NCBI GenBank assembly: GCA_012840085.1
Contig: DUMB01000079.1
Location: 43,140 to 107,139 of the forward strand
DNA length: 64,000 nucleotides
Direction of reading: 5' to 3'
Source: Clostridiaceae bacterium
GTDB lineage: Bacteria; Bacillota; Clostridia; Acetivibrionales; DUMB01
A model generated the notes under the pieces. That model made no database searches and was not told the origin of the DNA. It saw only the letters and a program-made list of their open reading frames with translations. Below are positions 407 through 59,938 of this stretch, piece by piece; position 1 is the stretch's first letter, and every line of letters starts with the position of its first letter. The position numbers were made by a program, and so were the translations under genes.

Positions 407-2931
407 TGAAAGGAAAACTCAAGAGAGGTGGTGACTGGGGAATGGGAAACATAAAACATGCCGGTGTGTACGATATTAAAAGCAGAATAATAAAAATTAC
501 AGAACACCTGGGGGACTGCATTCTTGCTGCCATATTCTGTTTAAGCATGGTTTATGCAATGACCACTTCCCTGCTGTTTGACTACTCTCCCCTGTTTTTG
601 TACCACATAATATTTGCTCTGTTAATAATATTTTCTGTAATGTTTTATAACAAAACTACAAGGCTGATTTCCTTAGGAGCAATATTTTTATTTACATTGT
701 CCCTTGCCATATATTTATATAAGACAAATGCCCTGGCAGAATTCATTGAATCAACCGGATTTTTTATGGAATGGGTCAGAAACTATACTTCCGTAGGAGC
801 ATCATTTATATCATCATACGCAATAATACTTACTATCCTGATATGTATCGCAGTTTGCCTTCCCGCATACTTTTTTATTGTTTCCAGGTTCAATTTTTTC
901 GTTGTACTGTTCGGAGGAGTATATCTCTTTGTTATTCAATGGATTGCAGACATTTTTGTGAGCTACCAGCCATTTTACATGTTCCTGTTTGTAATAATCA
1001 TTTACTATTTCAGATACATATATCAAAAAAGCTCTTCAGAAGAAACGGCTGACCGCACATCAATGCTGCTTTTTTCCATTTTCCTGTTACCTCTGTGCGT
1101 ACTGATACTTTATATTGTCATGTCCCTGCCCGTAAGTGAAAAGCCTCTTGAATGGCCATGGCTTGACAAAAAAGTAATAACAGCCATTGATTATGTAAAA
1201 AACAGATTCAGCTATCAGACCTTTGACAGATTCTCAATTGAAAATGCAGGCTTTGATGACGGTGACAGCAAGCTTGGCGGAAGTGTTAACAGCGATGGTA
1301 CTCCCGTGCTGAAAGTTAAGACTCCCCAAAGAATTTATCTGAAAGGTTCAGAAAAGGATATTTATGACGGTTCATCCTGGAAATCCAGCAGTGAAGAGAA
1401 TATGCCTCTGTCACCTTTTGCTTATGAGTCAATAGATACATCTTCTCCCTACCTGGACACATTTGAAATGGAAATAGGTCTGTTTTTGTATACCGGTGAT
1501 CCGCATGTTCTCAGCATGCACACTAAAGAAATAAGTATTGACGTCCAGTTCCTTAATTTAAGAACACCATGTATTTTTGCACCTGTCAAGATTACGGGCA
1601 TTAAAAGCAGTGGCAATAACCCTGTAGATATATTCCATAACGGAAACGGTATTTTATATACTGATGATTATATGAGTAAAGGTTTTGAATATAATATTAA
1701 AATGAGGTCCGTTGACCTGAATGATGAAGTAGTCAAAGCTCTTCTTGAAAACAGCCACAGAGGCTTTTTAAAGAAAGAATTCAGAAAGCTGCGTCAGCGC
1801 TACAGATTTTCACCCTATTCATCTTATGTCCAGAAAGCGGATATAGACAGAGCCTTAAAGAGGAACGGAAAAACATTACTTCTGATAGATGAATATATCT
1901 CAGCGCTTATGGAAAATTCCGAAAGAATATACTCCAGATATCTGCAAATTCCCGATACTCTTCCTGACAGAGTCATGCATCTTGCTTATGGGTTAACTCT
2001 AAATGCAAAAAACAGCTACGAAGCAGTAAGGTCCATTGAAAACTTTCTTTCTTCAAATTTCCGTTATACTCTTACACCGGAGCCTATGCCGGAGGACAGG
2101 GATTTTGTAGATTGGTTTCTGTTTGAATCAAGAGAAGGCTATTGTACTTACTATGCAACAGCCATGACAATTCTTACACGCTGTATAGGCATTCCCGCAA
2201 GATATGTAGAAGGATATACGCTGCCTTCGAAACAGAACAGCGATGGTACATACACAGTTACAAATGAGCAAGCCCATGCATGGGTTGAGGTTTATTTTGA
2301 AGGCTTTGGCTGGCTTCCGTTTGAGCCTACTCCCGGATATAACACATCCGTTTCTGAACAGGCAGCATCTGTTCAAGCGAATCTGGACAATGTGAATAGC
2401 AATTCTATGGTTACCATGCCGCGTGATAATGATTCCAACGTTACGGACAGCTTTTCTGAGAATCAGCCTGCAGTTACGGAAAAGCCGGAAGAAAGCCATG
2501 CAAAACTCAACAGCCTGACTATTCCACTAATTGTATTTGCTTTTCTGCTGCTTGTATTTTCCGGTACAATTACCGTCAATTATCTGAGAAGAAAAGCAAG
2601 GTTAAGAAAATTCCACAATGCTTTGCCAAGACAAAGCATTCTTCTAATGTATGGTCATATATTGGACGTTCTCTCATCTCAGGGGCTTGGCCTGCAACCG
2701 GGTGAGACACCTGTTGAATATTCCGACAGAATTGAAGGCTGTATGTCTTCAAACTCTTCTTTTAAAAGGATAACAAACATCTTTCTTACAGCCAGGTATG
2801 CAAATTCAGATGTACATGAAAATGAAAAGTCCGAAGTATACAGTTTTTACAAATGCTTCTTGATGGAAATCAAAAAAGTAATTGGCAGCAGGAAGTACTG
2901 GATATATAAAAATATACTAGGAAAGCTATAA
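403..2931 (+). CDS. Transglutaminase-like domain membrane protein
   Basis: 842-aa ORF with multiple N-terminal hydrophobic helices. Transglutaminase core motifs are present: REGYCTYYATAMT (Cys) and AHAWVEVYFEGFGWLPFEPTP (His/Asp). A late TM helix (IPLIVFAFLLLVF) and a cytoplasmic tail follow. Confidence 0.85.
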   Translation: MMKGKLKRGGDWGMGNIKHAGVYDIKSRIIKITEHLGDCILAAIFCLSMVYAMTTSLLFDYSPLFLYHIIFALLIIFSVMFYNKTTRLISLGAIFLFTLSLAIYLYKTNALAEFIESTGFFMEWVRNYTSVGASFISSYAIILTILICIAVCLPAYFFIVSRFNFFVVLFGGVYLFVIQWIADIFVSYQPFYMFLFVIIIYYFRYIYQKSSSEETADRTSMLLFSIFLLPLCVLILYIVMSLPVSEKPLEWPWLDKKVITAIDYVKNRFSYQTFDRFSIENAGFDDGDSKLGGSVNSDGTPVLKVKTPQRIYLKGSEKDIYDGSSWKSSSEENMPLSPFAYESIDTSSPYLDTFEMEIGLFLYTGDPHVLSMHTKEISIDVQFLNLRTPCIFAPVKITGIKSSGNNPVDIFHNGNGILYTDDYMSKGFEYNIKMRSVDLNDEVVKALLENSHRGFLKKEFRKLRQRYRFSPYSSYVQKADIDRALKRNGKTLLLIDEYISALMENSERIYSRYLQIPDTLPDRVMHLAYGLTLNAKNSYEAVRSIENFLSSNFRYTLTPEPMPEDRDFVDWFLFESREGYCTYYATAMTILTRCIGIPARYVEGYTLPSKQNSDGTYTVTNEQAHAWVEVYFEGFGWLPFEPTPGYNTSVSEQAASVQANLDNVNSNSMVTMPRDNDSNVTDSFSENQPAVTEKPEESHAKLNSLTIPLIVFAFLLLVFSGTITVNYLRRKARLRKFHNALPRQSILLMYGHILDVLSSQGLGLQPGETPVEYSDRIEGCMSSNSSFKRITNIFLTARYANSDVHENEKSEVYSFYKCFLMEIKKVIGSRKYWIYKNILGKL

Positions 2932-3062
2932 TAAAAATACCTTTGGAATGCTATAACAAAAAGATGCCTGGAAAGATACAAGCGTATATATCTAGAAAGA
3001 TATAAAAATTATTGCCTGTAAAGATATAATAAAATATGTTCGGAAAGATATAACATAAAAAC
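2918..3062. repeat. Six degenerate tandem units of 24-25 bp carrying a GGAAAGATATAA-like box
   Basis: GAAAG-type cores sit at 2921, 2946, 2971, 2995, 3019 and 3043. The first unit is the last codons plus stop of the transglutaminase CDS. Confidence 0.8.
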
Positions 3063-3140
3063 ACAAAAAACAACATGGCCGACATTCCAAAACAGAATGC
3101 TGTTCTGAAATGAAACAGGATACTGTTCTAAAATGTCGGC
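3056..3140 (-). terminator. Complex hairpin terminator of the ior-paaK-ACT operon
   Basis: The outer stem GCCGACATT (3078-3086) pairs with AATGTCGGC (3132-3140) and encloses two small hairpins (CAGAAtgctgTTCTG, AACAGgataCTGTT). On the minus strand it is followed by TGTTGTTTTTTGTGTTTTT. Confidence 0.5.
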
Positions 3141-3192
3141 TTAATATTAAATGTATTCGGCTTCACAATGAATGTATTTAAAATGCAAAGAA

Positions 3193-9506: not shown

Positions 9507-11141
9507 TCAGGCAATAACGTCCAATATTGACTTTTCAAGATTCTTAAGTTTTTGTTTGATTGCCTCCACTTCACTGTCATCAGTTTCTCTTTTCAGGTCT
9601 TCTTTGATTATTTCAGACATTTCGTCAATTTCTTCTTTGATTTTTTCAAGATAATCGAGAATCTCCAGTCTCTTAAACCTGAAGACGCTTTCAATCTTCT
9701 GAGGTTTACCTGTAACGTCTGTGACACTTGAAAGTGTAATTATGAATGAATCACCTTTTGAAGGTATTATTGTCTGCAGATTAAATTTATGTTCAAGTTC
9801 ACTGGCGAATTCACGCATTACATTTTCTTCACCATGTACAACAAAGACCTTCCGGGGTTTTTTAACAAATGAACCTACCCACTGCATCAATCCGTCTTTA
9901 TCGGCATGGCCTGAAAATCCTTCAATCATTTCAATTCTGGCATTTATTGAAATTTCTTCTCCAAATATTTTAACGCTTTTTGCCCCGTCTAAAATCCTTC
10001 TTCCAAGAGTTCCTTCAGCCTGGTATCCTACAAAAAGGATTGTGGAATCGCTTCTCCAGAGATTGTGTTTCAGATGATGTTTTATTCTTCCTGCTTCGCA
10101 CATACCACTGGCTGATATTATTATGCTGCTGTCCATTCTTTCATTCAATGCCTTTGATTCATCTGATGTCTTTGTAAAACGCAGTCCTGGAAAGTCCAGC
10201 GGATTATCGCCGCTTTCTATGAATTTCCTTGCTTCTTCATCGAAGCAGTCAAGGTTTTTTCTGAATATTTCTGTTGCGGATATTGCAAGAGGACTGTCTA
10301 TAAAAACAGGTATATTCTTGAAATGCTCATATTTTTCTGCGTATACATCCATGTGCTTATTTAATTCGTATATTATTTCCTGAGTCCTGCCTATGGCAAA
10401 GGAAGGTATAACAACATTGCCGCCCTTGTTCACAGTATCCAGTATTATATTCAAAAACTTTTCAGCTTTATTTTCTCTTTCCCTGTGCAATCTATTGCCA
10501 TATGTTGATTCCATAACCAGATAATCAGCATCCTCAATTATCGCGGGGTCTCTGACTATCGGCATATCTCTGTTGCCAAGATCGCCGGTAAAAACAGTCT
10601 TAATATTCTCTCCGTTTTCATAAACCCAAAGCTCAATTATAGAAGACCCCAGAATATGGCCGGCATCATTGAAACGCACTTTTATGCTGTAGGTTAAATC
10701 AACAATTTCACCGTATTTTACTCCTCTGAAGAGCTTCATACAGTCAACAGCGTCCTGGAGAGTATATAAAGGCTTTACAGGCGGTTTGCCTGCCCTTTTT
10801 CTCTTGCGGTTCTCCCACTCATTTTCAAACTCCTGGATGTGGCCGCTGTCAGGAAGCATTACTGCACAAAGGTCTGCCGTAGCTTTTGTGGTAATAACTT
10901 CACCTTTAAAACCATCCAAATATAATTTTGGTATTCTGCCGCTGTGATCAATGTGGGCATGAGTAAGAAGCACGAAGTCAATATCAGTAGGATTGAAATC
11001 AAAATCCTCTTTATTCATTTCTACCTCTTTTGCCCTGCCCTGGAACATTCCGCAGTCCACAAGAAGCTTGCACTTTTCCGTTTCTACAAGAAAACATGAA
11101 CCGGTTACGGTCTTAGCAGCCCCTAAAAATGTTATTTTCAT
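9507..11141 (-). CDS. MBL-fold metallo-hydrolase, beta-CASP RNA-metabolising nuclease family
   Basis: MKITFLGAAKTVTGSC and the HxHxDH motif (THAHIDHSG) are present, with a beta-CASP-like middle region and a charged coiled-coil tail. The start is set at ATG 11141, preceded by the SD GAGAGGTGGGG. The track start at 11189 is judged too long. Confidence 0.85.
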   Translation of the reverse strand: MKITFLGAAKTVTGSCFLVETEKCKLLVDCGMFQGRAKEVEMNKEDFDFNPTDIDFVLLTHAHIDHSGRIPKLYLDGFKGEVITTKATADLCAVMLPDSGHIQEFENEWENRKRKRAGKPPVKPLYTLQDAVDCMKLFRGVKYGEIVDLTYSIKVRFNDAGHILGSSIIELWVYENGENIKTVFTGDLGNRDMPIVRDPAIIEDADYLVMESTYGNRLHRERENKAEKFLNIILDTVNKGGNVVIPSFAIGRTQEIIYELNKHMDVYAEKYEHFKNIPVFIDSPLAISATEIFRKNLDCFDEEARKFIESGDNPLDFPGLRFTKTSDESKALNERMDSSIIISASGMCEAGRIKHHLKHNLWRSDSTILFVGYQAEGTLGRRILDGAKSVKIFGEEISINARIEMIEGFSGHADKDGLMQWVGSFVKKPRKVFVVHGEENVMREFASELEHKFNLQTIIPSKGDSFIITLSSVTDVTGKPQKIESVFRFKRLEILDYLEKIKEEIDEMSEIIKEDLKRETDDSEVEAIKQKLKNLEKSILDVIA

Positions 11142-11237
11142 TGCAGATACCCCACCTCTCTTTTCCCCTCTACATAAGATCAGGTACAAATTTATACAAG
11201 TTAAATTGTTTACATAAGTTAACTTGCTTTATATAAA

Positions 11238-11349
11238 TTAACTTGTTGTGCCAGCCAATGAGACAGCATTGTGGAGAACACCGGAGCTAGTTTTTATCAG
11301 CCCTTAAGCTCTGAATTCCTGCTATCGGAATGCAAACACAACAAGTTAA
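11238..11349. mobile_element. Copy 1 of a ~110-bp palindromic MITE-like element
   Basis: Termini are TTAACTTGTTGTGCCAGC ... GCAAACACAACAAGTTAA. The internal blocks AGCATTGTGGAG and GAATTCCTGCTATCGG are shared with the copies at 15460 and 36309. Confidence 0.75.
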
Positions 11350-11379: not shown

Positions 11380-12363
11380 TTAATACCCTTTTAAGCACTG
11401 CCTTAACAATTTAACACAGTTTTCAATATCAGTAATGTCAGCCATTTCCACCGGGCTGTGCACATACCTGCAAGGAATGGATATTACTCCTGAAGGAACT
11501 CCTCCCCCTGTCACGTGTATTGCACCTGCGTCTGTGCCGCCCTGTTCCATTATCTCAAATTGGTATGGAATTCCTATCTCTTTGGCTGAATTCTCAATAA
11601 GCCTTCTTACCTCAGGATGAGCTATAAACGAACGGTCTTTAATTTTTATGGCAGGTCCGCCGCCGCATTTGACTTCCATCAGTTCACATTCCGGGGTATC
11701 TCCTGTATCAGTTACGTCAATAGCAATTGCAATATCGGGCATTATACCAAACGCTGAGGTTTTTGCACCTCTAAGTCCCAATTCTTCCTGCACTGTAAAT
11801 ACAAAATATATTTCATTGTCTGTATCAGGCATTTCCTGTATTGTCTTAACCAGAACAGCGCAGCCGCCTCTGTCATCAAGGGCTTTTGACATGACCATGT
11901 TGCCTGCCAGCACTGTGTCGCCTACAAAACATGCAGTATCTCCTATCTTCACCTTTTTTTCTGTTTCTTCCCTGCTTTTTGCCCCAATATCGATATACAT
12001 ATTTGATAGTTTCAGATCTTTAATTTCTTTGAGTTTTTGTTCGTAAAAGACAGCACCAGCAGTACCGTTTTTGAACATTACTCTCTGACCCAGTGCAAAA
12101 TACTGCCATACCCAGCCTACGTTTGAAAACCTGATAAATCCTTTTTCATCAATGTATGTAGCCATTACGCCTATTTCGTCCATATGAGCAGCTACCATGA
12201 TTTTTTTGCCGCTGCCTTTTTTAACAGCGATCAGGTTTCCAAGAGCGTCAACTTTTATTTCATCAACTTTTCCATCTATCTCATTTTTTATAACTTCCCT
12301 TATTTGTTCTTCACTGCCAGATACTCCAAAAGAGCCTGCAAGCTTTTTGATTGTTTCAAACAT
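11380..12363 (-). CDS. M42 family metallopeptidase (TET aminopeptidase-like), paralog 3 of 3
   Basis: The M42 pattern is present: GVSGSEEQIRE, AAHMDEIG, VQEELGLRGA, and CRYVHSP near the C-terminus. The start is set at ATG 12363, with GGAGGT 7 nt upstream. The track start at 12378 contains the SD itself. Confidence 0.85.
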   Translation of the reverse strand: MFETIKKLAGSFGVSGSEEQIREVIKNEIDGKVDEIKVDALGNLIAVKKGSGKKIMVAAHMDEIGVMATYIDEKGFIRFSNVGWVWQYFALGQRVMFKNGTAGAVFYEQKLKEIKDLKLSNMYIDIGAKSREETEKKVKIGDTACFVGDTVLAGNMVMSKALDDRGGCAVLVKTIQEMPDTDNEIYFVFTVQEELGLRGAKTSAFGIMPDIAIAIDVTDTGDTPECELMEVKCGGGPAIKIKDRSFIAHPEVRRLIENSAKEIGIPYQFEIMEQGGTDAGAIHVTGGGVPSGVISIPCRYVHSPVEMADITDIENCVKLLRQCLKGY

Positions 12364-13414
12364 TGCAGTTACCTCCATTTAATATTTTTAATGTATAGTC
12401 AGTATTATTCTCAAGTTCTTTTAATACAGCCTCCATCAGCTTTATGCAACCCTCATAATCCTTCCTGCTCATGACTGAGGAAGGTGAGTGTATATACCTG
12501 CAGGGCACTGAAATTGAAGCCACTTTTACACCACAACGGCTTCTCTGAATTTTCCCTGCATCATTTCCTCCCGTCGTAGTTTTTTTGAATTGTACATCAA
12601 TTTTATATTTCCTTGCCGTATCATATATAAAATTTACAACATCCTTATCTGCATATGCTGTTCTGTCCATAACTGTAATAACAGGGCCTTTTCCAAGCTC
12701 CGTAGAATACTCATGTTCCTTTATTCCGGGAACATCGGAACAGGTAGTACCCTCAATTACAATAGCTATATCCGGGTTAATTTGATATCCAACAACTTCA
12801 GAACCTCTTAATCCTATCTCTTCCTGCACGGTAAAACTTGCGTACAGGTCGAATTCATAGCGTTGTTTTAACAGTTCCATTATTATTGCGCAGCCTACTC
12901 TGTCATCCAGCGCTTTTGCTTTTATACAGTCAGAACCCAATTCTGTGAATTTGCTGTCAAAAGCGATATATTCCCCAAGGCCTGCAAGCTTTTCAGCTTC
13001 ATCACGCTTATCACAGCCTATATCAATATACATGCTTTTTATTTTTATATTTTTATCCCTTTCATCCTTTTCTTGCAGATGGATTGGTTTACAGCCTATT
13101 ACTCCTTTCAGCCCCTTATCGCCAACCACCACTCTTTTACCGGGGAGAACCCTTTGATCTATACCTCCGACAGGTCTGAATTTAATCAACCCATCTTCAC
13201 TGTGGCCCGTAACAATAAATCCTACTTCATCCATGTGTGCAGACAGCAACAGTTTAAATTTTGAGGCGGTACCCTTTTTATATGCGATGAGATTTCCTAC
13301 TTTGTCCACTTTAATTTCATCTGCCACATTTTCTATTTCCTTCTTTATGAACTCTCTTACCTTTTCCTCATTGCCGGATACTCCGTTTATCTGAGTTAAA
13401 TTCTTAAGAAGCAT
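12356..13414 (-). CDS. M42 family metallopeptidase, paralog 2 of 3
   Basis: Motifs GVSGNEEKVRE, SAHMDEVG, VQEEIGLRGS and CRYIHSP are present. GGAGGTG lies 6 nt upstream of the ATG, and the ATG abuts the upstream stop. Confidence 0.88.
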   Translation of the reverse strand: MLLKNLTQINGVSGNEEKVREFIKKEIENVADEIKVDKVGNLIAYKKGTASKFKLLLSAHMDEVGFIVTGHSEDGLIKFRPVGGIDQRVLPGKRVVVGDKGLKGVIGCKPIHLQEKDERDKNIKIKSMYIDIGCDKRDEAEKLAGLGEYIAFDSKFTELGSDCIKAKALDDRVGCAIIMELLKQRYEFDLYASFTVQEEIGLRGSEVVGYQINPDIAIVIEGTTCSDVPGIKEHEYSTELGKGPVITVMDRTAYADKDVVNFIYDTARKYKIDVQFKKTTTGGNDAGKIQRSRCGVKVASISVPCRYIHSPSSVMSRKDYEGCIKLMEAVLKELENNTDYTLKILNGGNCNV

Positions 13415-14485
13415 TCATATCACCTCCATATTGCGGGTAAGCCTTGCTATGAATCTTGCTGCCAGCCTTCCTGTATTTTTTATATCGTCAACATGAACTG
13501 TTTCAACTGCAGTGTGCATATATCTGACGGGTATGGACAGCAATACCGTAGGTATGCCGGCGCGGGAAACCTGTGTGGCCCATGCCTCGGTCCCTGTATC
13601 AGAAGGCTCAACGTCTATCTGATACGGAATATTTTCATCCTTTGCCACGTTTATTACAGTCTGGCTCATCTTTCTGTCAAGTACAGGCCCTATACCGACT
13701 GCAGGTCCTTTCCCAAGAGCATAAGTTTCCTCCTTTGACGTGTCAGGCATATTGCCATGACAGGCATCAATAACAATGGCTACATCAGGTTCAATTGCAT
13801 ATGATGAAATGATTGCCCCCGTCAAATGTGTTTCTTCCTGAGTGCTTGCAACAAAATATACATCTGCACCGTGTTTTATGCCTGTCAATTCTTTCATGAT
13901 CTCAATCAAAGCTGTCACTCCGCTTCGGTTGTCAACAGTCTTTGCACTGAATTTTCCATTTTTCAGCTCTGTAAATTCAAAGTCCAATGTTATCAAATCA
14001 CCTATTGAAACCACTTTTTTCAGTTCTTCCGCGCAGATACCTGTATCCACAGCGAGATCTTCAATCTTTATTGATTTATTGGCTTCTGCGGGTTTTAACA
14101 GATGTGGTGGTTTTGCGCCAATTATTCCAGGAATGTCCCTGGTTCCGTGAATGATCACTTCATGAGCCGGAAGGATTTTGGGATCAACTCCTCCAACAGA
14201 AGTTATTCTGATAAAACCTTTTTCGTCGATACTCTTTACCATGAGCCCGATTTCATCCATGTGAGCCATTACAAGTACCTTCATTTTTCTGCCGTCTATG
14301 TACCCGTTTTCATCTGCAGAAGCTGTCATTTTTCCAACTACATTGTAAAACTTGTCTATCCATACTTCTTCACAGAACTCCATAAAGATTTCCTTCAGAC
14401 GTCTTGCCAGAAGTTCCTCGTGCCCGGACACTGCAATGCTGCACGTTAAATCCTTCAAAATGTCCGGAGTCTTCATATTTTTCAT
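13415..14485 (-). CDS. M42 family metallopeptidase, paralog 1 of 3
   Basis: Motifs AVSGHEELLAR, MAHMDEIG, STQEETHLTGA and VRYMHTA are present, with the SD GAGGTGA upstream. Confidence 0.85.
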   Translation of the reverse strand: MKNMKTPDILKDLTCSIAVSGHEELLARRLKEIFMEFCEEVWIDKFYNVVGKMTASADENGYIDGRKMKVLVMAHMDEIGLMVKSIDEKGFIRITSVGGVDPKILPAHEVIIHGTRDIPGIIGAKPPHLLKPAEANKSIKIEDLAVDTGICAEELKKVVSIGDLITLDFEFTELKNGKFSAKTVDNRSGVTALIEIMKELTGIKHGADVYFVASTQEETHLTGAIISSYAIEPDVAIVIDACHGNMPDTSKEETYALGKGPAVGIGPVLDRKMSQTVINVAKDENIPYQIDVEPSDTGTEAWATQVSRAGIPTVLLSIPVRYMHTAVETVHVDDIKNTGRLAARFIARLTRNMEVI

Positions 14486-14533
14486 ATTTTCACCTCGTGT
14501 ATCATTATTTATATGTCTTAACCAGTATAAACC

Positions 14534-14677
14534 TCACATCAAATTAACTGCCATATTTATATCAGCTGCCTTGTTAATATTAGCTGCTATGTTGTTATAA
14601 GTTGCCACGCTGGTGTCAACTGCCATATCGCTATTAGTTGCCGCGTTGATATCAGCTGCTGTTTTGCAGCCCGCCAT
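14534..14677 (-). CDS. Candidate 47-aa small ORF made of hexapeptide repeats (MAGCKT AADINA ATNSDM AVDTSV ATYNNI AANINK AADINM AVNLM)
   Basis: I translated this by hand: ATG at 14677, TGA at 14536-14534. It is on the same strand as the M42 operon and 48 nt upstream of it. Seven in-frame 18-nt units each start with GCA. Ile, Asn and Asp codons vary synonymously between units. The SD is weak (GGGAAG). It falls below the track length cutoff. Confidence 0.4.
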   Translation of the reverse strand: MAGCKTAADINAATNSDMAVDTSVATYNNIAANINKAADINMAVNLM

Positions 14678-14682
14678 TTGCC
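14546..14682. repeat. Array of ~8 degenerate 18-nt tandem units (ARCTGCC-N-TAT-type)
   Basis: Units begin at 14546, 14564, 14582, 14601, 14618, 14636, 14654 and 14668. The array coincides with the candidate sORF. Confidence 0.8.
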
Positions 14683-14829
14683 AGATCTTCCCGGAAAGAG
14701 CTCTTTGCCCGCAGTTATTTTAATTATACCAAATTAATTTGATTAATATTAACATATATTTTGCTCTAAACAATGCAGTTGCATTCTTGGAACCTTTGTT
14801 CTGTCCTGAATAATTTTAAAAATTTTCTC

Positions 14830-17267: not shown

Positions 17268-17594
17268 GTTGTTGTCACAACCTGGCCGCAAAGCATGCCG
17301 TCATGTCAACAACAAACACGGTTTTCTTTATAGTATAACCTCCTTTACCGAGTATAGTACATTTAGGCAAGCCGGTAAAGAGTTTTTGCATTTAAGTCTT
17401 TACATTTAAGTCTGTTTTCTTAACATATAAGTCTGTTTCCTTCACATATTTATAAATAAGTTTGCTTATCATTATTTATAATAAATATGGTATTTAGCTT
17501 AAAAAAATAAGGTATTCAGCTTTAAAATTTAAAACATTTAAAGAATAAATCCTGTAATGACATACTTACGTCATATTGTAATATCAAAGTGTAT

Positions 17595-23204: not shown

Positions 23205-23474
23205 CAAATTCACGTTCTTTCTTGCATTTTTTCTGTTCCTTATTTTTCGCTTATTTTTCTTCAACTTCTTTTCTTTAAGCTTCTTTGTTGCATCTTCTTT
23301 TTTCGCTTGTTTGTTTCACTTCTTTTTTCACTTTTTTTCACTTCTTTTTTCGCTTCTTTTTTCAGTTTCCTGTTTTTTAGCTTCTCTTTTTACAAGTTCC
23401 ATTTTTTGGCTCCTATTATCCAGCTTCCTATTATCCAGCTTCCTATCATCCAGCTTCCCCAAGTAAATCCGCAA
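23205..23474. repeat. ~270-bp polypyrimidine (plus strand) low-complexity tract containing a 3 x 15-bp tandem repeat
   Basis: The plus strand is almost all T/C. TAT(T/C)ATCCAGCTTCC occurs three times at 23414-23458. The minus strand reads as K/E-rich text broken by stops at A-runs. Confidence 0.8.
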
Positions 23475-24284
23475 TTACCTTTCAGTGAAGTTCATCAATA
23501 GAACATTAAATTCGTCTTTTTGATCATAAAAAGTTGCGTGTCCGGAAAATTTAAACGGTACTAATGTAGAATTTCGAATCATGCTACGTTGTATCTCTGC
23601 AAGCTGAAAAGGAACCACTTTATCATGTATGCCGTGAATAATTAATGTAGGTACTTGAATAGCTTGCAAGTCTGCGAAAAGCACTTCGTTAATCCAAGTC
23701 TTTGCAACAGCTGCAGTTGCCCATCCTGCTGCCTGCAACCCCAACTGGAAGAACCAGTCTGAGAATGCTTGAGACGTATGTTGGAAGAAAAACCTGTCGC
23801 CAAAATTTCGAAGCATTTGTGGACGGTCATTATATGTACCCTCTATTATATCTAAAACCACCTTTTCATCAACACCATAGGGAAAATTAGGACGTTTGAC
23901 TAAACTTGGTGCGGCGGCTGCAATAAGAACAAGCTTATTTACCCCATACCCTTTATGGCGTCCCATGTATCTTACTGCTATTGCACCACCGGTAGAATGT
24001 CCGGCTAAAGTAAAGTCACGCAGACCTAATGTTTCAACCACCGCTCTCACATCGTCTGACAAGGTATTATAATCATACCCGTAAAATGGTTTATCCGACT
24101 TGCCAAAACCTCTCGTATCGATTCCTACACACCGGTAACCAAATTGCGGCAGCTTATCAAACTGGTATTCAAACAAATTATGATTGCCTGGCCAACCGTG
24201 CAAAAACACAATCGTCTTTTTACCTTCCGGATTTAAATCCTCAACATATATATTTACATTGTTTACGTTGACATAGCAACCCAT
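23475..24284 (-). CDS. Alpha/beta hydrolase (non-haem haloperoxidase/esterase-like)
   Basis: HGWPG oxyanion motif, nucleophile elbow GHSTGG, and late IHGIHD/SGH motifs. The start is set at ATG 24284, with the SD AAGGAGGGAG upstream. Confidence 0.8.
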   Translation of the reverse strand: MGCYVNVNNVNIYVEDLNPEGKKTIVFLHGWPGNHNLFEYQFDKLPQFGYRCVGIDTRGFGKSDKPFYGYDYNTLSDDVRAVVETLGLRDFTLAGHSTGGAIAVRYMGRHKGYGVNKLVLIAAAAPSLVKRPNFPYGVDEKVVLDIIEGTYNDRPQMLRNFGDRFFFQHTSQAFSDWFFQLGLQAAGWATAAVAKTWINEVLFADLQAIQVPTLIIHGIHDKVVPFQLAEIQRSMIRNSTLVPFKFSGHATFYDQKDEFNVLLMNFTER

Positions 24285-24563
24285 ATTCTCCCTCCTTAAT
24301 GAATAATTACAGATTATAATATTCATAAGGATAGTTTAATGTGATGTTGTACCTTATCCAGAATTGGCTTGTCGTGCTGGCACAACAGGTAAAACTAATT
24401 CTTTATTGCCGGGGAAAAGCAAAACACCGATAGCACAAGCCAAAAAGTGTTACCCTTTAGTACATATGGTGCAATTGAGAAATGCTAAGACTGGTGCTAA
24501 AATATATTTTTACAAGAAGTGAAATCCATAATAAAGTATGAAGCAAACAGGAGGTCTGTCTTT

Positions 24564-27887: not shown

Positions 27888-28067
27888 TTTAGCTAGTTCC
27901 TCTCTTGTCGCTCATTAAGCTATATAATGTAAAAAAGAAGTTATATAGTGTAAAAAATTTCTTGTAATTTTTATTTCGTGTAATTTTTCAGTAACAAATT
28001 TTTTTACTAACTCATATTAGCAGTTAATCTACATTTTACTACATGACAGTTTACTATTCTATTGTTA

Positions 28068-30343: not shown

Positions 30344-30390
30344 TATTAGCTTGTTAAACATTACCTTGTTAATTATTAGCTAGTTAACTA
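30344..30390. promoter_or_regulatory. Putative MarR operator repeats
   Basis: ATTAGCTTGTTAA (30344-30356) and ATTAGCTAGTTAA (30374-30386) lie 30 bp apart. The second contains the perfect palindrome TAGTTAACTA. Both sit 35-80 nt upstream of the marR ATG. Confidence 0.35.
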
Positions 30391-30572
30391 TTACAATGTA
30401 ACATTCCATTTACTCAGTGTCAATTCTCATTTTGTTCAGTCTGAGTTTCACTTATGATAAAAGACCACGGGTTTAATATTCTTTTTCAATACGGCCATAA
30501 AAGATTTTCCCGCTGACGGCATCTTCCCACCGTCATATATCAAGTTTTTTAGATTGGTAAGCCATTATAAAA

Positions 30573-54189: not shown

Positions 54190-54222
54190 CAAAAAACGCA
54201 GGATGTTGAGTTATCCTGCGCT
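54190..54222 (-). terminator. Rho-independent terminator of the STAND/SARP regulator gene
   Basis: On the minus strand GCGCAGGAT aactcaac ATCCTGCG is followed by TTTTTTG. Confidence 0.75.
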
Positions 54223-54272
54223 TTTCAAAAGTTATCCTACACTTTTCAAGTCATCGTCCCTGTTTTCTGCAG

Positions 54273-57688: not shown

Positions 57689-58393
57689 CTAGTCCGCCGT
57701 CAACACAATTTTGCCGCCAAAGTTGCTTAAAGTAAACAGTTCTGAGTCATGCAGCCATTCATATGAAACATTGTATTCAAATGGGAAAACCTGGGGTATT
57801 GAAGACAACTCTGCAATTTCATAGTAAGCTTTTTCTTTTAAATTAAGTATGGCCAGTAACAGCACCTGTATGGTTTTAGCATCCGTAACCGGGTACTTTT
57901 TTATGCGATATACCCCAATCTTTACATTTTCGATGGCCCCAATCTGTTTCAATGTCTGTAATATCTTATCGCTGGAATGGTACAAAGTGGTCCCTTCTCC
58001 CCACATTTCGAACAACTTTTCCTTGAGCCAGGAAGCCGCAAAAGTATCCTGAATTTTAGTAAGCTTGCCTATTAAAGCACATACATCACAGAATATGGGG
58101 TAAGCAAGCAGCATCATGCTCCAATGCAATGCCAGTTTATTCGACTTATCATCTTTATATGCTTCTAAAGCTTGCTGTTTTAAAGCTGAAAGCTCATCAG
58201 GAATTCTAACCCATATATTCATGAGGATTTCCCTTGTCTTTCTTACGTTAACAGGGCTTTTTATTTCAAATGACAAGTATTCGGTTAACTCATCTTTAAT
58301 TTGGGTTTCGTTCTTGCCCTGTAATAAAAGGTCTACAGTCTTATTGAGCCATTCCGGTTTAATGGAACGGGACAGTCCAATCATCTTTGCCAT
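57689..58393 (-). CDS. brxA: BrxA-like protein (DUF1819-like), last gene of a type 3 BREX-like locus
   Basis: 234-aa helical protein directly after pglZ, matching the position and size of BrxA in type 3 BREX. Sequence resemblance is judged by eye only. Confidence 0.5.
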   Translation of the reverse strand: MAKMIGLSRSIKPEWLNKTVDLLLQGKNETQIKDELTEYLSFEIKSPVNVRKTREILMNIWVRIPDELSALKQQALEAYKDDKSNKLALHWSMMLLAYPIFCDVCALIGKLTKIQDTFAASWLKEKLFEMWGEGTTLYHSSDKILQTLKQIGAIENVKIGVYRIKKYPVTDAKTIQVLLLAILNLKEKAYYEIAELSSIPQVFPFEYNVSYEWLHDSELFTLSNFGGKIVLTAD

Positions 58394-58396
58394 CTA

Positions 58397-58501
58397 TATT
58401 ACCGCCTTTACTAATTATGTATTAATATCTGTATTACCGTCTTTACTGATTATGTATTAATATCTGTATTATCGCCTTTACTAATTCTATATAACCGCTT
58501 T
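58397..58501. repeat. 35-bp tandem repeat (about 3 units) in the pglZ-brxA spacer
   Basis: TATTACCG/TATTATCG unit starts fall at 58397, 58432 and 58467. A fourth partial core lies inside the pglZ 3' end (58487-58507). Confidence 0.85.
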
Positions 58502-59938
58502 TACTTTAATAAATGGGACAATTACCTCGTCAATGGTGATGCCCCCGTGTGTCATTACTTCTTCATTCTTATTGTCAAAAGAAACGCCTGGTTTGCATAC
58601 GTAGTATTTATAGTTTTTATCCAGATAATAACCCGGATACATCACAACTTTGTCAGCCAAAGAATCCTTTATTTCTGCAAAGTCTTTCAGAACAAGCATC
58701 CTTCTGGATTTGGTTTCCACCTCGACACCGGCATTTCTTATAGTTCCTGTGCCGACGCATGGTGTATTGCCATGGTCAGATGTTACATAAACATTAAATC
58801 CCTGTGAATACAAATCTTTAATTAAAGCTTGTAACTTACCGTTCTTTGCCCACAATAAAACATCATTATACATTCCTAAGCGTCCCTGCTTTTGCCCATG
58901 AACCATGTTATCTATATCATTAATAATGACAGCAGCAAACTTGGTAAAATGGCTTATGGCCGGATTGTATCCCATAGCATATAAACATTGAGCTTTAGAA
59001 TATCCTGCATTTTCTGCTGCTTTGATGAAATTTTTTTCTTCCTGGCTCAAAGCAAAAGGACTTTCCAATTCGCGGGGATATTTTCCGCTTAGCAATCCCT
59101 GCCTTGATATCGCCGTAGTCGTCGGTATAAGGGCATAACTGCAGTGGTATTCATACTCAATACCTTCCAGGCACCGTGAGATGACTTCAAAATCAAATAA
59201 GGACATTCCATCCAGTACAATAAGTGCAACTTTTCCATGAGCAATAAAATCAATTACTTTGGGCAGTATTTTCGGAGCCGGTTTATTGCTCTCACCGGAA
59301 AGTCTTTGGTAGCCATCAAATATAAACTTTTCAAATTCCTCATTAACAAAACCCGTATCTATCGGAATGTTTGCTTTTGCAGCGTAATAATCAATCAGTG
59401 CCTTTTTTCTGGCAATCTCAATCCAACCAAATGAAGTAATATCATATTTGTCACCGGAAGGCAAGAGGATTTTTATCATAACCTCACAATAAGCTTTTAC
59501 ATTCTCCTTTGAAAAGACCGTGCCTGAAATAAAGTCTTCCGTCTCTTCCCTGGTGTCACAGGACGAATAAAGCTCCTCATAGGCAAAACTAATCAAGTCA
59601 ATGTCTTTAACATACCGTCGCACCGTATCTTCATGAAGTTTCGGAAAGATGCTTCTCAGAGAAATTTCAACTTCAAAAAACTTTTTCCTTATATCGTACG
59701 GCACATATATGTCAGAATAAACAATAACCGCATATTTATTGTCGGAATTCCTTATTTCCTGCTCATACTTCAGCCGGAATGCTTCAATATCCTCATACAG
59801 AATGACCTCAAAATTCTGAGCAATAAGCAGCCTGGTATAATCAAAGACAGCAGAAAATCTTCCGGTATCAAATATCAGCAGCCGTTTTTCGTATTGAATT
59901 GAAAAAAGCTCTGCTATCCGTTTCTCTATCATTATCAT
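58487..59938 (-). CDS. pglZ: PglZ domain protein (alkaline phosphatase superfamily)
   Basis: Motifs LIVLDGMSLFDF, VYVTSDHGNTPC and THGGITIDEVIVPF fit the PglZ metal-site pattern. At 483 aa it is shorter than PglZ proteins I recall from type 1 BREX. Confidence 0.7.
   Translation of the reverse strand: MIMIEKRIAELFSIQYEKRLLIFDTGRFSAVFDYTRLLIAQNFEVILYEDIEAFRLKYEQEIRNSDNKYAVIVYSDIYVPYDIRKKFFEVEISLRSIFPKLHEDTVRRYVKDIDLISFAYEELYSSCDTREETEDFISGTVFSKENVKAYCEVMIKILLPSGDKYDITSFGWIEIARKKALIDYYAAKANIPIDTGFVNEEFEKFIFDGYQRLSGESNKPAPKILPKVIDFIAHGKVALIVLDGMSLFDFEVISRCLEGIEYEYHCSYALIPTTTAISRQGLLSGKYPRELESPFALSQEEKNFIKAAENAGYSKAQCLYAMGYNPAISHFTKFAAVIINDIDNMVHGQKQGRLGMYNDVLLWAKNGKLQALIKDLYSQGFNVYVTSDHGNTPCVGTGTIRNAGVEVETKSRRMLVLKDFAEIKDSLADKVVMYPGYYLDKNYKYYVCKPGVSFDNKNEEVMTHGGITIDEVIVPFIKVKAVI

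Follow-up and report, generated by a model that had tools for sequence, protein, structure and literature searches.

The 18-nt tandem array located upstream of three M42-family aminopeptidase genes, together with the 47-codon open reading frame (ORF) that spans it, is probably a non-coding, essentially neutral and lineage-specific minisatellite (18-nt VNTR) in the 5' leader of the M42 operon. Its units follow each other head to tail beyond chance expectation in the window, i.e. the whole stretch of 64,000 nucleotides analysed here, their number varies, and the array is not conserved across orthologous loci, all of which is typical of minisatellites. A preliminary description had proposed three explanations for the ORF, namely a small secreted or structural peptide, a leader peptide sensing the supply of Ala, Asn and Asp, and a DNA repeat with a fortuitously open frame. 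The distribution of the array, an indel, the pattern of substitutions and an open antisense frame support the last of these. The locus comprises the following features, given in the order of transcription of the operon.

14723-14752, minus strand: sigma-70-type promoter of the M42 operon (TTAATA, 18-nt spacer, TATAAT, with TG before the -10 box)
14660-14714, minus strand: 5' module of the insert, devoid of GCA-type units and missing in every array-free relative, carrying the weak Shine-Dalgarno (SD) sequence and the ATG (14677) of the ORF
14534-14677, minus strand: 47-codon ORF from ATG to TGA, judged to be an incidental open frame and gene-called in the source assemblies
14534-14659, minus strand: seven degenerate 18-nt tandem units, each with a conserved half (GCARYTRAY) and a 9-nt variable half
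14486-14533, minus strand: 3' part of the leader, the last ~35 nt of which (AAGACATATAAATAATGATACACGAGGTGAAAAT) are common to all close relatives, with the SD sequence GAGGTG at 14496-14491
13415-14485, 12356-13414 and 11380-12378, minus strand: three tandem M42-family aminopeptidase genes (Pfam PF05343, E 1e-87 to 2e-97)

The basic anatomy of the ORF, as first described, was confirmed by the ORF listing and by cutting the sequence in an 18-nt register. The ORF runs on the minus strand from an ATG at 14677 to a TGA at 14536-14534, with a gap of 48 nt between this stop and the M42 start codon (14485), and its product is a peptide of 47 aa, MAGCKTAADINAATNSDMAVDTSVATYNNIAANINKAADINMAVNLM. In the 18-nt register, a single non-repeat unit, ATGGCGGGCTGCAAAACA, is followed by seven exact 18-nt units that each open with GCA and make up codons 7-47 plus the stop. 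A two-unit pattern with at most one mismatch was found 6 times in the 64-kb window, always at the array locus, compared with 0.02 times in shuffled sequences. Because the units are degenerate, with 7-14 of 18 bases common to any pair within the window array (40-78% identity), Tandem Repeats Finder reported just 2.8 copies at best (period 18, 75% matches). By exact-sequence look-up, the window belongs to a 129-kb contig of a biogas-fermenter metagenome (run DRR066655, project PRJDB5067); the ORF is identical in two independent assemblies of this run (the ENA assembly and Logan), and no unit-number polymorphism was seen within the single sample carrying the window lineage.

Based on the comparison of the units, the codon-position pattern is unlike that of a protein under purifying selection. 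When the units of the window were pooled with those of L049, the sister lineage that also carries the array (n = 18), positions 1-9 (GCARYTRAT) were found to be conserved and positions 10-18 to be variable at all three codon positions. Codons 1 and 2 are fourfold degenerate, with A in 16 and T in 17 of the 18 units at their respective third positions, and codon 2 combines variable first and second positions with a nearly fixed third one. These conserved third positions are not explained by codon usage, since GCA represents 42% of the Ala codons in the long ORFs of the window and T-ending Ala, Thr and Val codons represent 27-36%; shared descent of the units explains part of the pattern. The occurrence of synonymous codons at equivalent positions had been taken as a sign of a conserved peptide, a reading that is contradicted by the location of this variation in the variable half of the unit, whereas the conserved half has near-fixed third positions. 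The open frame probably results from a unit length divisible by three and from a founder unit that would be stop-free in four of the six frames. One antisense frame runs through the array without a stop in both the window and L049, portions of the array are covered by plus-strand ORFs, one of 82 aa starting with TTG and one of 36 aa starting with GTG, and, when the 141-nt body was shuffled by mononucleotides, 36% of the sequences had one or more of the six frames open.

The array sits in a divergent intergenic region, the plus strand of which carries tRNA-Met, tRNA-Phe and tRNA-Tyr genes. In the promoter scan, the M42 promoter scored 10/12 with an extended -10. The promoter blocks TTTGGTATAAT and TAATATTAA are invariant across five aligned leaders, and L177 and L186 likewise have TTTGGTATAAT. 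Transcription would start at this promoter and, given its use, the array is probably part of a transcribed leader of ~230 nt. A weak proximal site at 14531-14504 would, if transcription began there, leave the array outside the mRNA. The SD sequence of the first M42 gene has a predicted duplex energy of -11.8 kcal/mol. No terminator-like site was found on the minus strand between 14300 and 15300, including the gap between the ORF and the M42 gene, and an Rfam search at E <= 10 found nothing in 14486-14760, the three tRNAs alone passing the threshold. The neighbours of the ORF (tRNA genes, murD, the three M42 peptidases and an RNase J-like gene) are not modifying enzymes of the kind expected next to a RiPP precursor, and relatives possess the M42 genes but lack the ORF.

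Homologues of the first M42 protein include a few close ones (93, 90, 86, 83 and 78% identity), the rest being at ~60% or lower. The latter are mostly metagenome proteins; the named ones include Acetivibrio, Pseudobacteroides and Herbivorax. The DNA was compared around the close homologues and in Acetivibrio cellulolyticus, and among these lineages only the window lineage and L049 were found to carry the array, the M42 protein of L049 being 93% identical. The other lineages are as follows, with the identity of their M42 protein.

L177-L185 (nine contigs from several samples): 90%, array absent
L051: 86%, array absent
L052: 83%, array absent
L186: 82%, array absent
L053: 78%, array absent
Acetivibrio cellulolyticus: 58%, synteny from the tRNA genes to M42 kept, leader without tandem repeat

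Being confined to the window lineage and L049, the array is therefore a derived feature of one shallow branch. The five close lineages devoid of the array keep the promoter block TTTGGTATAAT and the last ~35 nt before the M42 ATG, and the spacer between the promoter and the ribosome-binding block is ~40-115 nt long, lineage-specific in sequence and repeat-free. Array-bearing and array-free relatives alike have the three-gene M42 arrangement. From the -10 box to the ribosome-binding block, the sequence differs in every lineage compared and, judging from these alignments, is an indel hot spot. A scan of GTDB genomes with the M42 protein revealed only relatives at <=39% identity, without an upstream 18-nt array. 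The end of the L050 contig, 43 nt upstream of the M42 ATG, was considered as a possible assembly break caused by the array, an idea that was dismissed as the longer L177-L184 contigs have a short array-free leader. Weak unit-like resemblances occur at the equivalent position in L051 (GCAACAGTG), L052 (GCAGGATTAAATG) and L177 (GTACTAATATG); these are short and AT-rich, and represent a lead only.

The two array-bearing lineages differ in both the length and the frame of the array. There are 7 units in the window and 11 in L049 and, because unit 8 of L049 is 17 nt long, the length difference amounts to 71 nt, one short of four units, which breaks the frame; the frameshift lies in an A-run and is known from one metagenome assembly. 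The L049 frame exits the repeat after nine of the 11 units and then stops, yielding a 57-aa gene called by JGI. The final two and a half units of L049 lie outside this frame, their DNA being nearly identical to the last units of the window. The TGA stop of the window is TAT in L049. In the orthologous units, defined as those fixed by their flanks or by identity, five nonsynonymous and one synonymous differences were counted (nd = 5, sd = 1; N = 69.2 and S = 17.8 sites), a ratio that is about neutral, versus a pS of 0.294, a pN of 0.031 and a dN/dS of 0.084 for the first M42 gene. In a rough binomial estimate, at least five nonsynonymous changes out of six have a p of ~0.004 under M42-like constraint and of ~0.6 under neutrality. 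Collinear units 0-5 are identical at 87/108 positions (~81%), against ~80% for the third codon positions of the first M42 gene; the array thus appears to diverge at about the rate of third codon positions and itself looks roughly neutral. The promoter and the 5' module are identical at 94 of 98 positions. Recent recombination was considered as the source of this leader conservation and rejected, as third-position identity in the first 150 nt of the first M42 gene is 0.80, like the remainder of the gene. With only two array-bearing sequences, all these comparative tests have little power.

As a check on the peptide, the preliminary description had proposed examining in related genomes whether indels are multiples of 18 or 3 and whether substitutions are mostly synonymous. 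The comparison revealed a non-multiple-of-3 indel in L049, where neither the frame nor the stop is preserved, changes that are mostly nonsynonymous, and relatives free of the array. The secreted or structural peptide initially envisaged is difficult to reconcile with the 71-nt indel, the lost stop, the nd of 5 versus sd of 1, and the absence of the ORF from relatives. Likewise, a leader peptide sensing Ala, Asn and Asp finds no terminator on which attenuation could act, its frame would be broken by the same 71 nt, and it is absent from orthologous operons, the M42 operon occurring without the ORF in five relative lineages.

Searches with the peptide gave a similar picture. HMMER searches of 1.84 billion representative proteins returned one marginal match (E = 4e-4), to P0121, a 2101-aa surface protein with Ala/Asn/Asp-rich repeats, which was rejected as a homologue because the match is of low complexity. 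A word-index protein search with the peptide found nothing, but did not retrieve the gene-called L049 ORF either, despite the many words in common, and is thus uninformative. At E <= 10, no Pfam family, and hence no Hexapep, was found for the window or the L049 peptide; the sole Pfam match of the frame-corrected L049 peptide is a weak one to DUF188 (E = 0.11). AlphaFold2, run without alignment, predicted one alpha-helix covering residues 7-46 (pLDDT 86), although little weight can be given to a helix predicted from one Ala-rich sequence. With no Hexapep match and a predicted alpha-helix, the suggested likeness to the hexapeptide rule of left-handed beta-helices was not borne out.

Regarding translation, a putative SD sequence (GGGAAG/AGGAAG) lies 9 nt upstream of the ORF, with duplex energies of -7.9 kcal/mol in the window and -5.4 kcal/mol in L049. 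Initially described as weak, this site is in fact intermediate: it is weaker than the median of the long ORFs of the window (-10), but stronger than that of all ATGs (-3.2). The value of -7.9 kcal/mol falls in the best 7% of window ATGs, and translation is therefore plausible. The ATG is conserved in the window and L049, and gene callers accepted the ORF in both; the putative SD sequence lies within a predicted hairpin. In these comparisons, the data show no purifying selection on the peptide sequence, and the ORF itself may or may not be translated.

At the RNA level, the 5' module and the first repeat unit are predicted to form an outer stem and two hairpins, a minimum-energy fold shared by the window and L049. 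The four substitutions that separate the two 5' modules include one G.U to A-U change and one compensatory C-G to U-A pair, whose G-to-A component is the Ala2Thr change of the ORF. The fold z-scores of the module are only -1.3 and -2.3, and the compensatory pair (n = 1, p ~0.03 as a rough estimate) hints at some RNA-level constraint, which is to be taken as a lead. Compared with shuffled sequences, the window array is less structured (z = +1.06) and the whole window leader has a z-score of -0.98, whereas z-scores are -2.2 for the L049 array and -3.8 for the whole L049 leader, the latter better than all 100 shuffles. Since the L049 structure arises from L049-specific units, there is no conserved array structure. 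In the minimum-energy fold of the window, the SD region of M42 is base-paired to unit 3 (CACCAGCGTG); an anti-SD role was rejected and the pairing attributed to chance, the complementary sequence being absent from L049.

A second expansion was identified at 11191-11247, one intergenic region downstream, where an 18/19-nt unit occurs in three copies; this unit has one copy in L177 and none in L049 and L051. Overall, 21 of the 41 tandem-repeat regions fall outside the long open frames, in ~12% of the window. Taken together, this nearby expansion and the enrichment of repeats in intergenic DNA make local duplication, followed by gain and loss of units, the simplest origin for the array. A short leader segment would have been inserted or duplicated to give the array founder, units would then have been gained or lost by slipped-strand or unequal recombination, and point mutation would have eroded them. 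The effect of the array is most likely modest, consisting of a longer leader and perhaps an upstream ORF translated incidentally, with no selected peptide.

Two features fit this scenario less well. An array-less lineage is barely more distant than L049 (pS of 0.306 versus 0.294), and the divergence of the units is not comfortably reconciled with the youth of the array under a simple recent in-situ duplication; moreover, slippage gives no account of the ~55-nt 5' module. Because these two points are unaccounted for, the arrival of the ~190-nt insert as a ready-made sequence, either a MITE- or BOX-like non-autonomous element or captured foreign DNA, was kept as a rival, although a very unlikely one. 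The sharp presence/absence boundaries between close lineages, the unique 5' module, the strong divergence of units in a phylogenetically young array, and a 14-nt imperfect inverted repeat (86% complementary) that brackets the insert, with arms at 14724-14711 (ATTAAAATAACTGC) and 14551-14538 (GCAGTTAATTTGAT), are all consistent with such an event. However, the 5' arm overlaps the conserved -10 region and is therefore not part of the insert, the 3' arm is the last repeat unit, and no target-site duplication is evident. No further copy of any part of the insert was found in the 64-kb window, nor any match in the 240 other loci compared or in plasmids and phages by blastn, and the 1-to-3 expansion nearby took place in situ. 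A three-unit degenerate pattern gave more than 120 matches in metagenomes and 53 in viral sequences, but is too unspecific; the multi-unit matches inspected are unrelated 9- and 18-nt minisatellites, and blastn comparison of the pattern-scan loci with the leader gave weak short matches only, none to the insert or array. It is also quite unlikely that the array is a cis-acting element in which the GCARYTRAY cores are repeated binding sites of a regulator (TRAP-, CsrB- or operator-array-like) and the 5' module acts as a stabiliser or sensor. This possibility draws on the alternation of a 9-nt conserved core with a 9-nt spacer at a strict 18-nt period, on core variation made almost entirely of transitions, which is compatible with G-U-tolerant pairing, on the 96% identity of the promoter and 5' module versus ~80% at third codon positions, and on the RNA data, namely the common fold of the 5' module, with its compensatory and wobble-to-Watson-Crick changes, and the z-score of the L049 leader. 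Yet the compensatory pair is a single one, the L049 array owes its structure to L049-specific units, the window array folds less well than shuffled sequences and the window leader has a z-score of -0.98, no Rfam family matches, and the anti-SD-like match of window unit 3 is missing in L049. In addition, the array diverges almost neutrally without keeping its unit number, all other relatives have the M42 operon without it, a period of 18 bp does not keep in phase with the turns of the DNA helix, and only 5 of the 18 units have an intact CAGCTG palindrome.

An unlikely reading, but one with several points in its favour, is that of a young upstream ORF or micro-protein born de novo, whose translation would modulate the M42 operon or whose peptide would itself be functional. 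The ATG is kept and gene-called in both lineages, its SD duplex beats most background ATGs, the frame is open for 47 codons in the window and 57 in L049, and a helix is predicted by AlphaFold2. Furthermore, the hexad A-[ATV]-[DNE]-x-[NSK]-[IMV] is kept in the L049-specific units, including through GCA to GCT and ACT to ACA changes. Set against this are a dN/dS of ~1 over the orthologous units, the frame-breaking difference and the stop that is not conserved, the absence of the ORF in every relative at <=90% M42 identity, and the position of fourfold-degenerate third positions among the most conserved sites, together with an antisense frame that is just as open. The peptide has no homologue or Pfam match and the leader no attenuation terminator, the putative SD sequence is predicted to be enclosed in a hairpin, and the helix prediction carries little weight. 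It is similarly improbable, if slightly more so, that a gene is being observed at birth, i.e. that the expansion created a translated repeat ORF (47 aa, and 57 aa in the sister lineage) already influencing the M42 operon, or a helical Ala/Asn/Asp-rich micro-protein, with the 5' module serving as translational control.

The probable minisatellite can be compared with several known systems. Bacterial VNTR loci, including promoter and 5'-UTR repeat tracts that alter expression, are among the subjects of a review (PMC3899988), and 5'-UTR repeats have been studied in Haemophilus (PMC12721329). The array resembles VNTR loci in its head-to-tail arrangement, its fixed 18-nt period, its 7 versus 11 units, its site between promoter and start codon and its absence from slightly more distant relatives, as well as in the enrichment of short tandem duplications in the intergenic DNA of the window. 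It differs from phase-variation tracts, which are near-perfect and actively slipping, by units that are 40-78% identical, and looks old or decaying. Since it interrupts neither the promoter spacer nor the coding region, the array has no evident on/off consequence for M42.

Regulatory leader peptides and upstream ORFs such as trpL, hisL and ermCL belong to attenuation systems, with which the locus shares an operon connected with amino-acid supply and a short same-strand ORF in its leader. In contrast to these, the array leader has neither a terminator/antiterminator nor a run of one regulatory codon, and its ORF is not conserved with the operon and has a neutral substitution pattern. Hexapep (PF00132) proteins have the same six-residue period, with an aliphatic then a small residue, as in the rotated unit [IMV]-A-[ATV]-[DN]-x-[NS], but the ORF has only 7 hexads (~2.3 coils), a single predicted alpha-helix and no homologue. 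TRAP binds the (G/U)AG repeats of the trp leader, and CsrB-type sponge RNAs carry GGA repeats. The array is similar to such sites in having regularly spaced short conserved cores with variable spacers in a 5' leader, but it lacks GGA and GAG/UAG motifs, has no Rfam match and is not co-conserved with the operon. To our knowledge, its period and core differ from those of any described repeat-based RNA-protein regulatory system.

The feature is a further example of a degenerate intergenic minisatellite in an operon leader, found here in a lineage of uncultured biogas-reactor Clostridia in which intergenic segments of ~18 nt undergo expansion. Should the array prove to influence expression, it would provide a modest example of repeat-driven regulatory evolution. 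It also calls for caution in annotation, as an 18-nt stop-free repeat automatically yields a neat hexapeptide-repeat ORF that gene callers accept: the ORF was called in both the ENA and Logan assemblies of the window, and its L049 version in the JGI assembly.

Comparison of the M42 aminopeptidase leader among relatives revealed that the stretch extending from the -10 box of its sigma-70-type promoter to the conserved block preceding the M42 start codon is non-homologous in each lineage, as illustrated by L177 (2930-2975), L051 (3940-3965), L052 (660-690), and L053 (155-240), whose M42 sequences are 90, 86, 83, and 78% identical to that of the window, respectively. This region can thus be regarded as an indel hot spot. 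The L053 leader carries its own insert of ca. 85 nt, which was not recognized as a terminator by the terminator scan; in this insert, TTTAT comes after the two arms of an 8-nt inverted repeat (AAAGCACA...TGTGCTTT). The downstream border of the stretch is formed by the following element:

14486-14520, minus strand: conserved block AAGAyATAyAAATAATnATnCAyGAGGTGAAAAT, directly before the M42 ATG

This block is mostly retained at the equivalent positions of L049-L053, L177, and L186 (82% M42 identity), with the greatest divergence in L053, and overlaps a weak promoter-like site (TTTATA-16-AATAAT, 14531-14504). The block may act as a proximal promoter or as an operator.

Within the insert of the window leader, the 5' module (14637-14718, minus strand) and its counterpart in L049 (200-281), the 93% relative and the only one with the 18-nt array, have an identical predicted fold, composed of an outer stem and two hairpins. 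Four substitutions distinguish the two modules, including a compensatory change from a C-G to a U-A pair and one from G.U to A-U. The small ORF has its putative SD within the first predicted hairpin. Both this 47-aa ORF and the 57-aa ORF of L049 are included in the gene calls of their source assemblies, yet neither was returned by the word-index search or by the representative library; negative results of these searches with very short proteins should therefore be considered with caution.

Upstream of the M42 promoter, L177-L180, all belonging to the 90% lineage, exhibit ABC-transporter permease genes and a GH66 glycoside hydrolase gene (positions 1-2656), and the tRNA cluster and murD are replaced. 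This gene change is a rearrangement with a breakpoint just upstream of the M42 promoter.

A second array of similar unit length was found upstream of an RNase J-like gene (ATG near 11141):

11191-11247, minus strand: three copies of an 18/19-nt unit, CAAGTTAAyTTATrTAAA

At the same place, the unit occurs three times in the window, once in L177, and is absent from L049 and L051. Judging from these copy numbers, this array is a direct case of in-situ expansion within the window lineage. More broadly, 21 of the 41 tandem-repeat regions fall within the approximately 12% of the window not covered by stop-free stretches of at least 150 codons. Examples of these regions, followed by a long composite tract, are:

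2906-3178, 17381-17527, 27917-27988, 30344-30393, and 54209-54249: tandem repeats outside long stop-free stretches
58392-58505: likewise outside such stretches, 2.7 copies of a 35-nt unit
23239-23458: long composite tandem-repeat tract with periods of 12, 15, 22, and 34

The sole ORF across this composite tract, on the plus strand, would encode an 88-aa product rich in Phe, Leu, and Ser and was judged implausible. The tract adjoins the end of an alpha/beta-hydrolase-like gene (23475-24326, minus strand).
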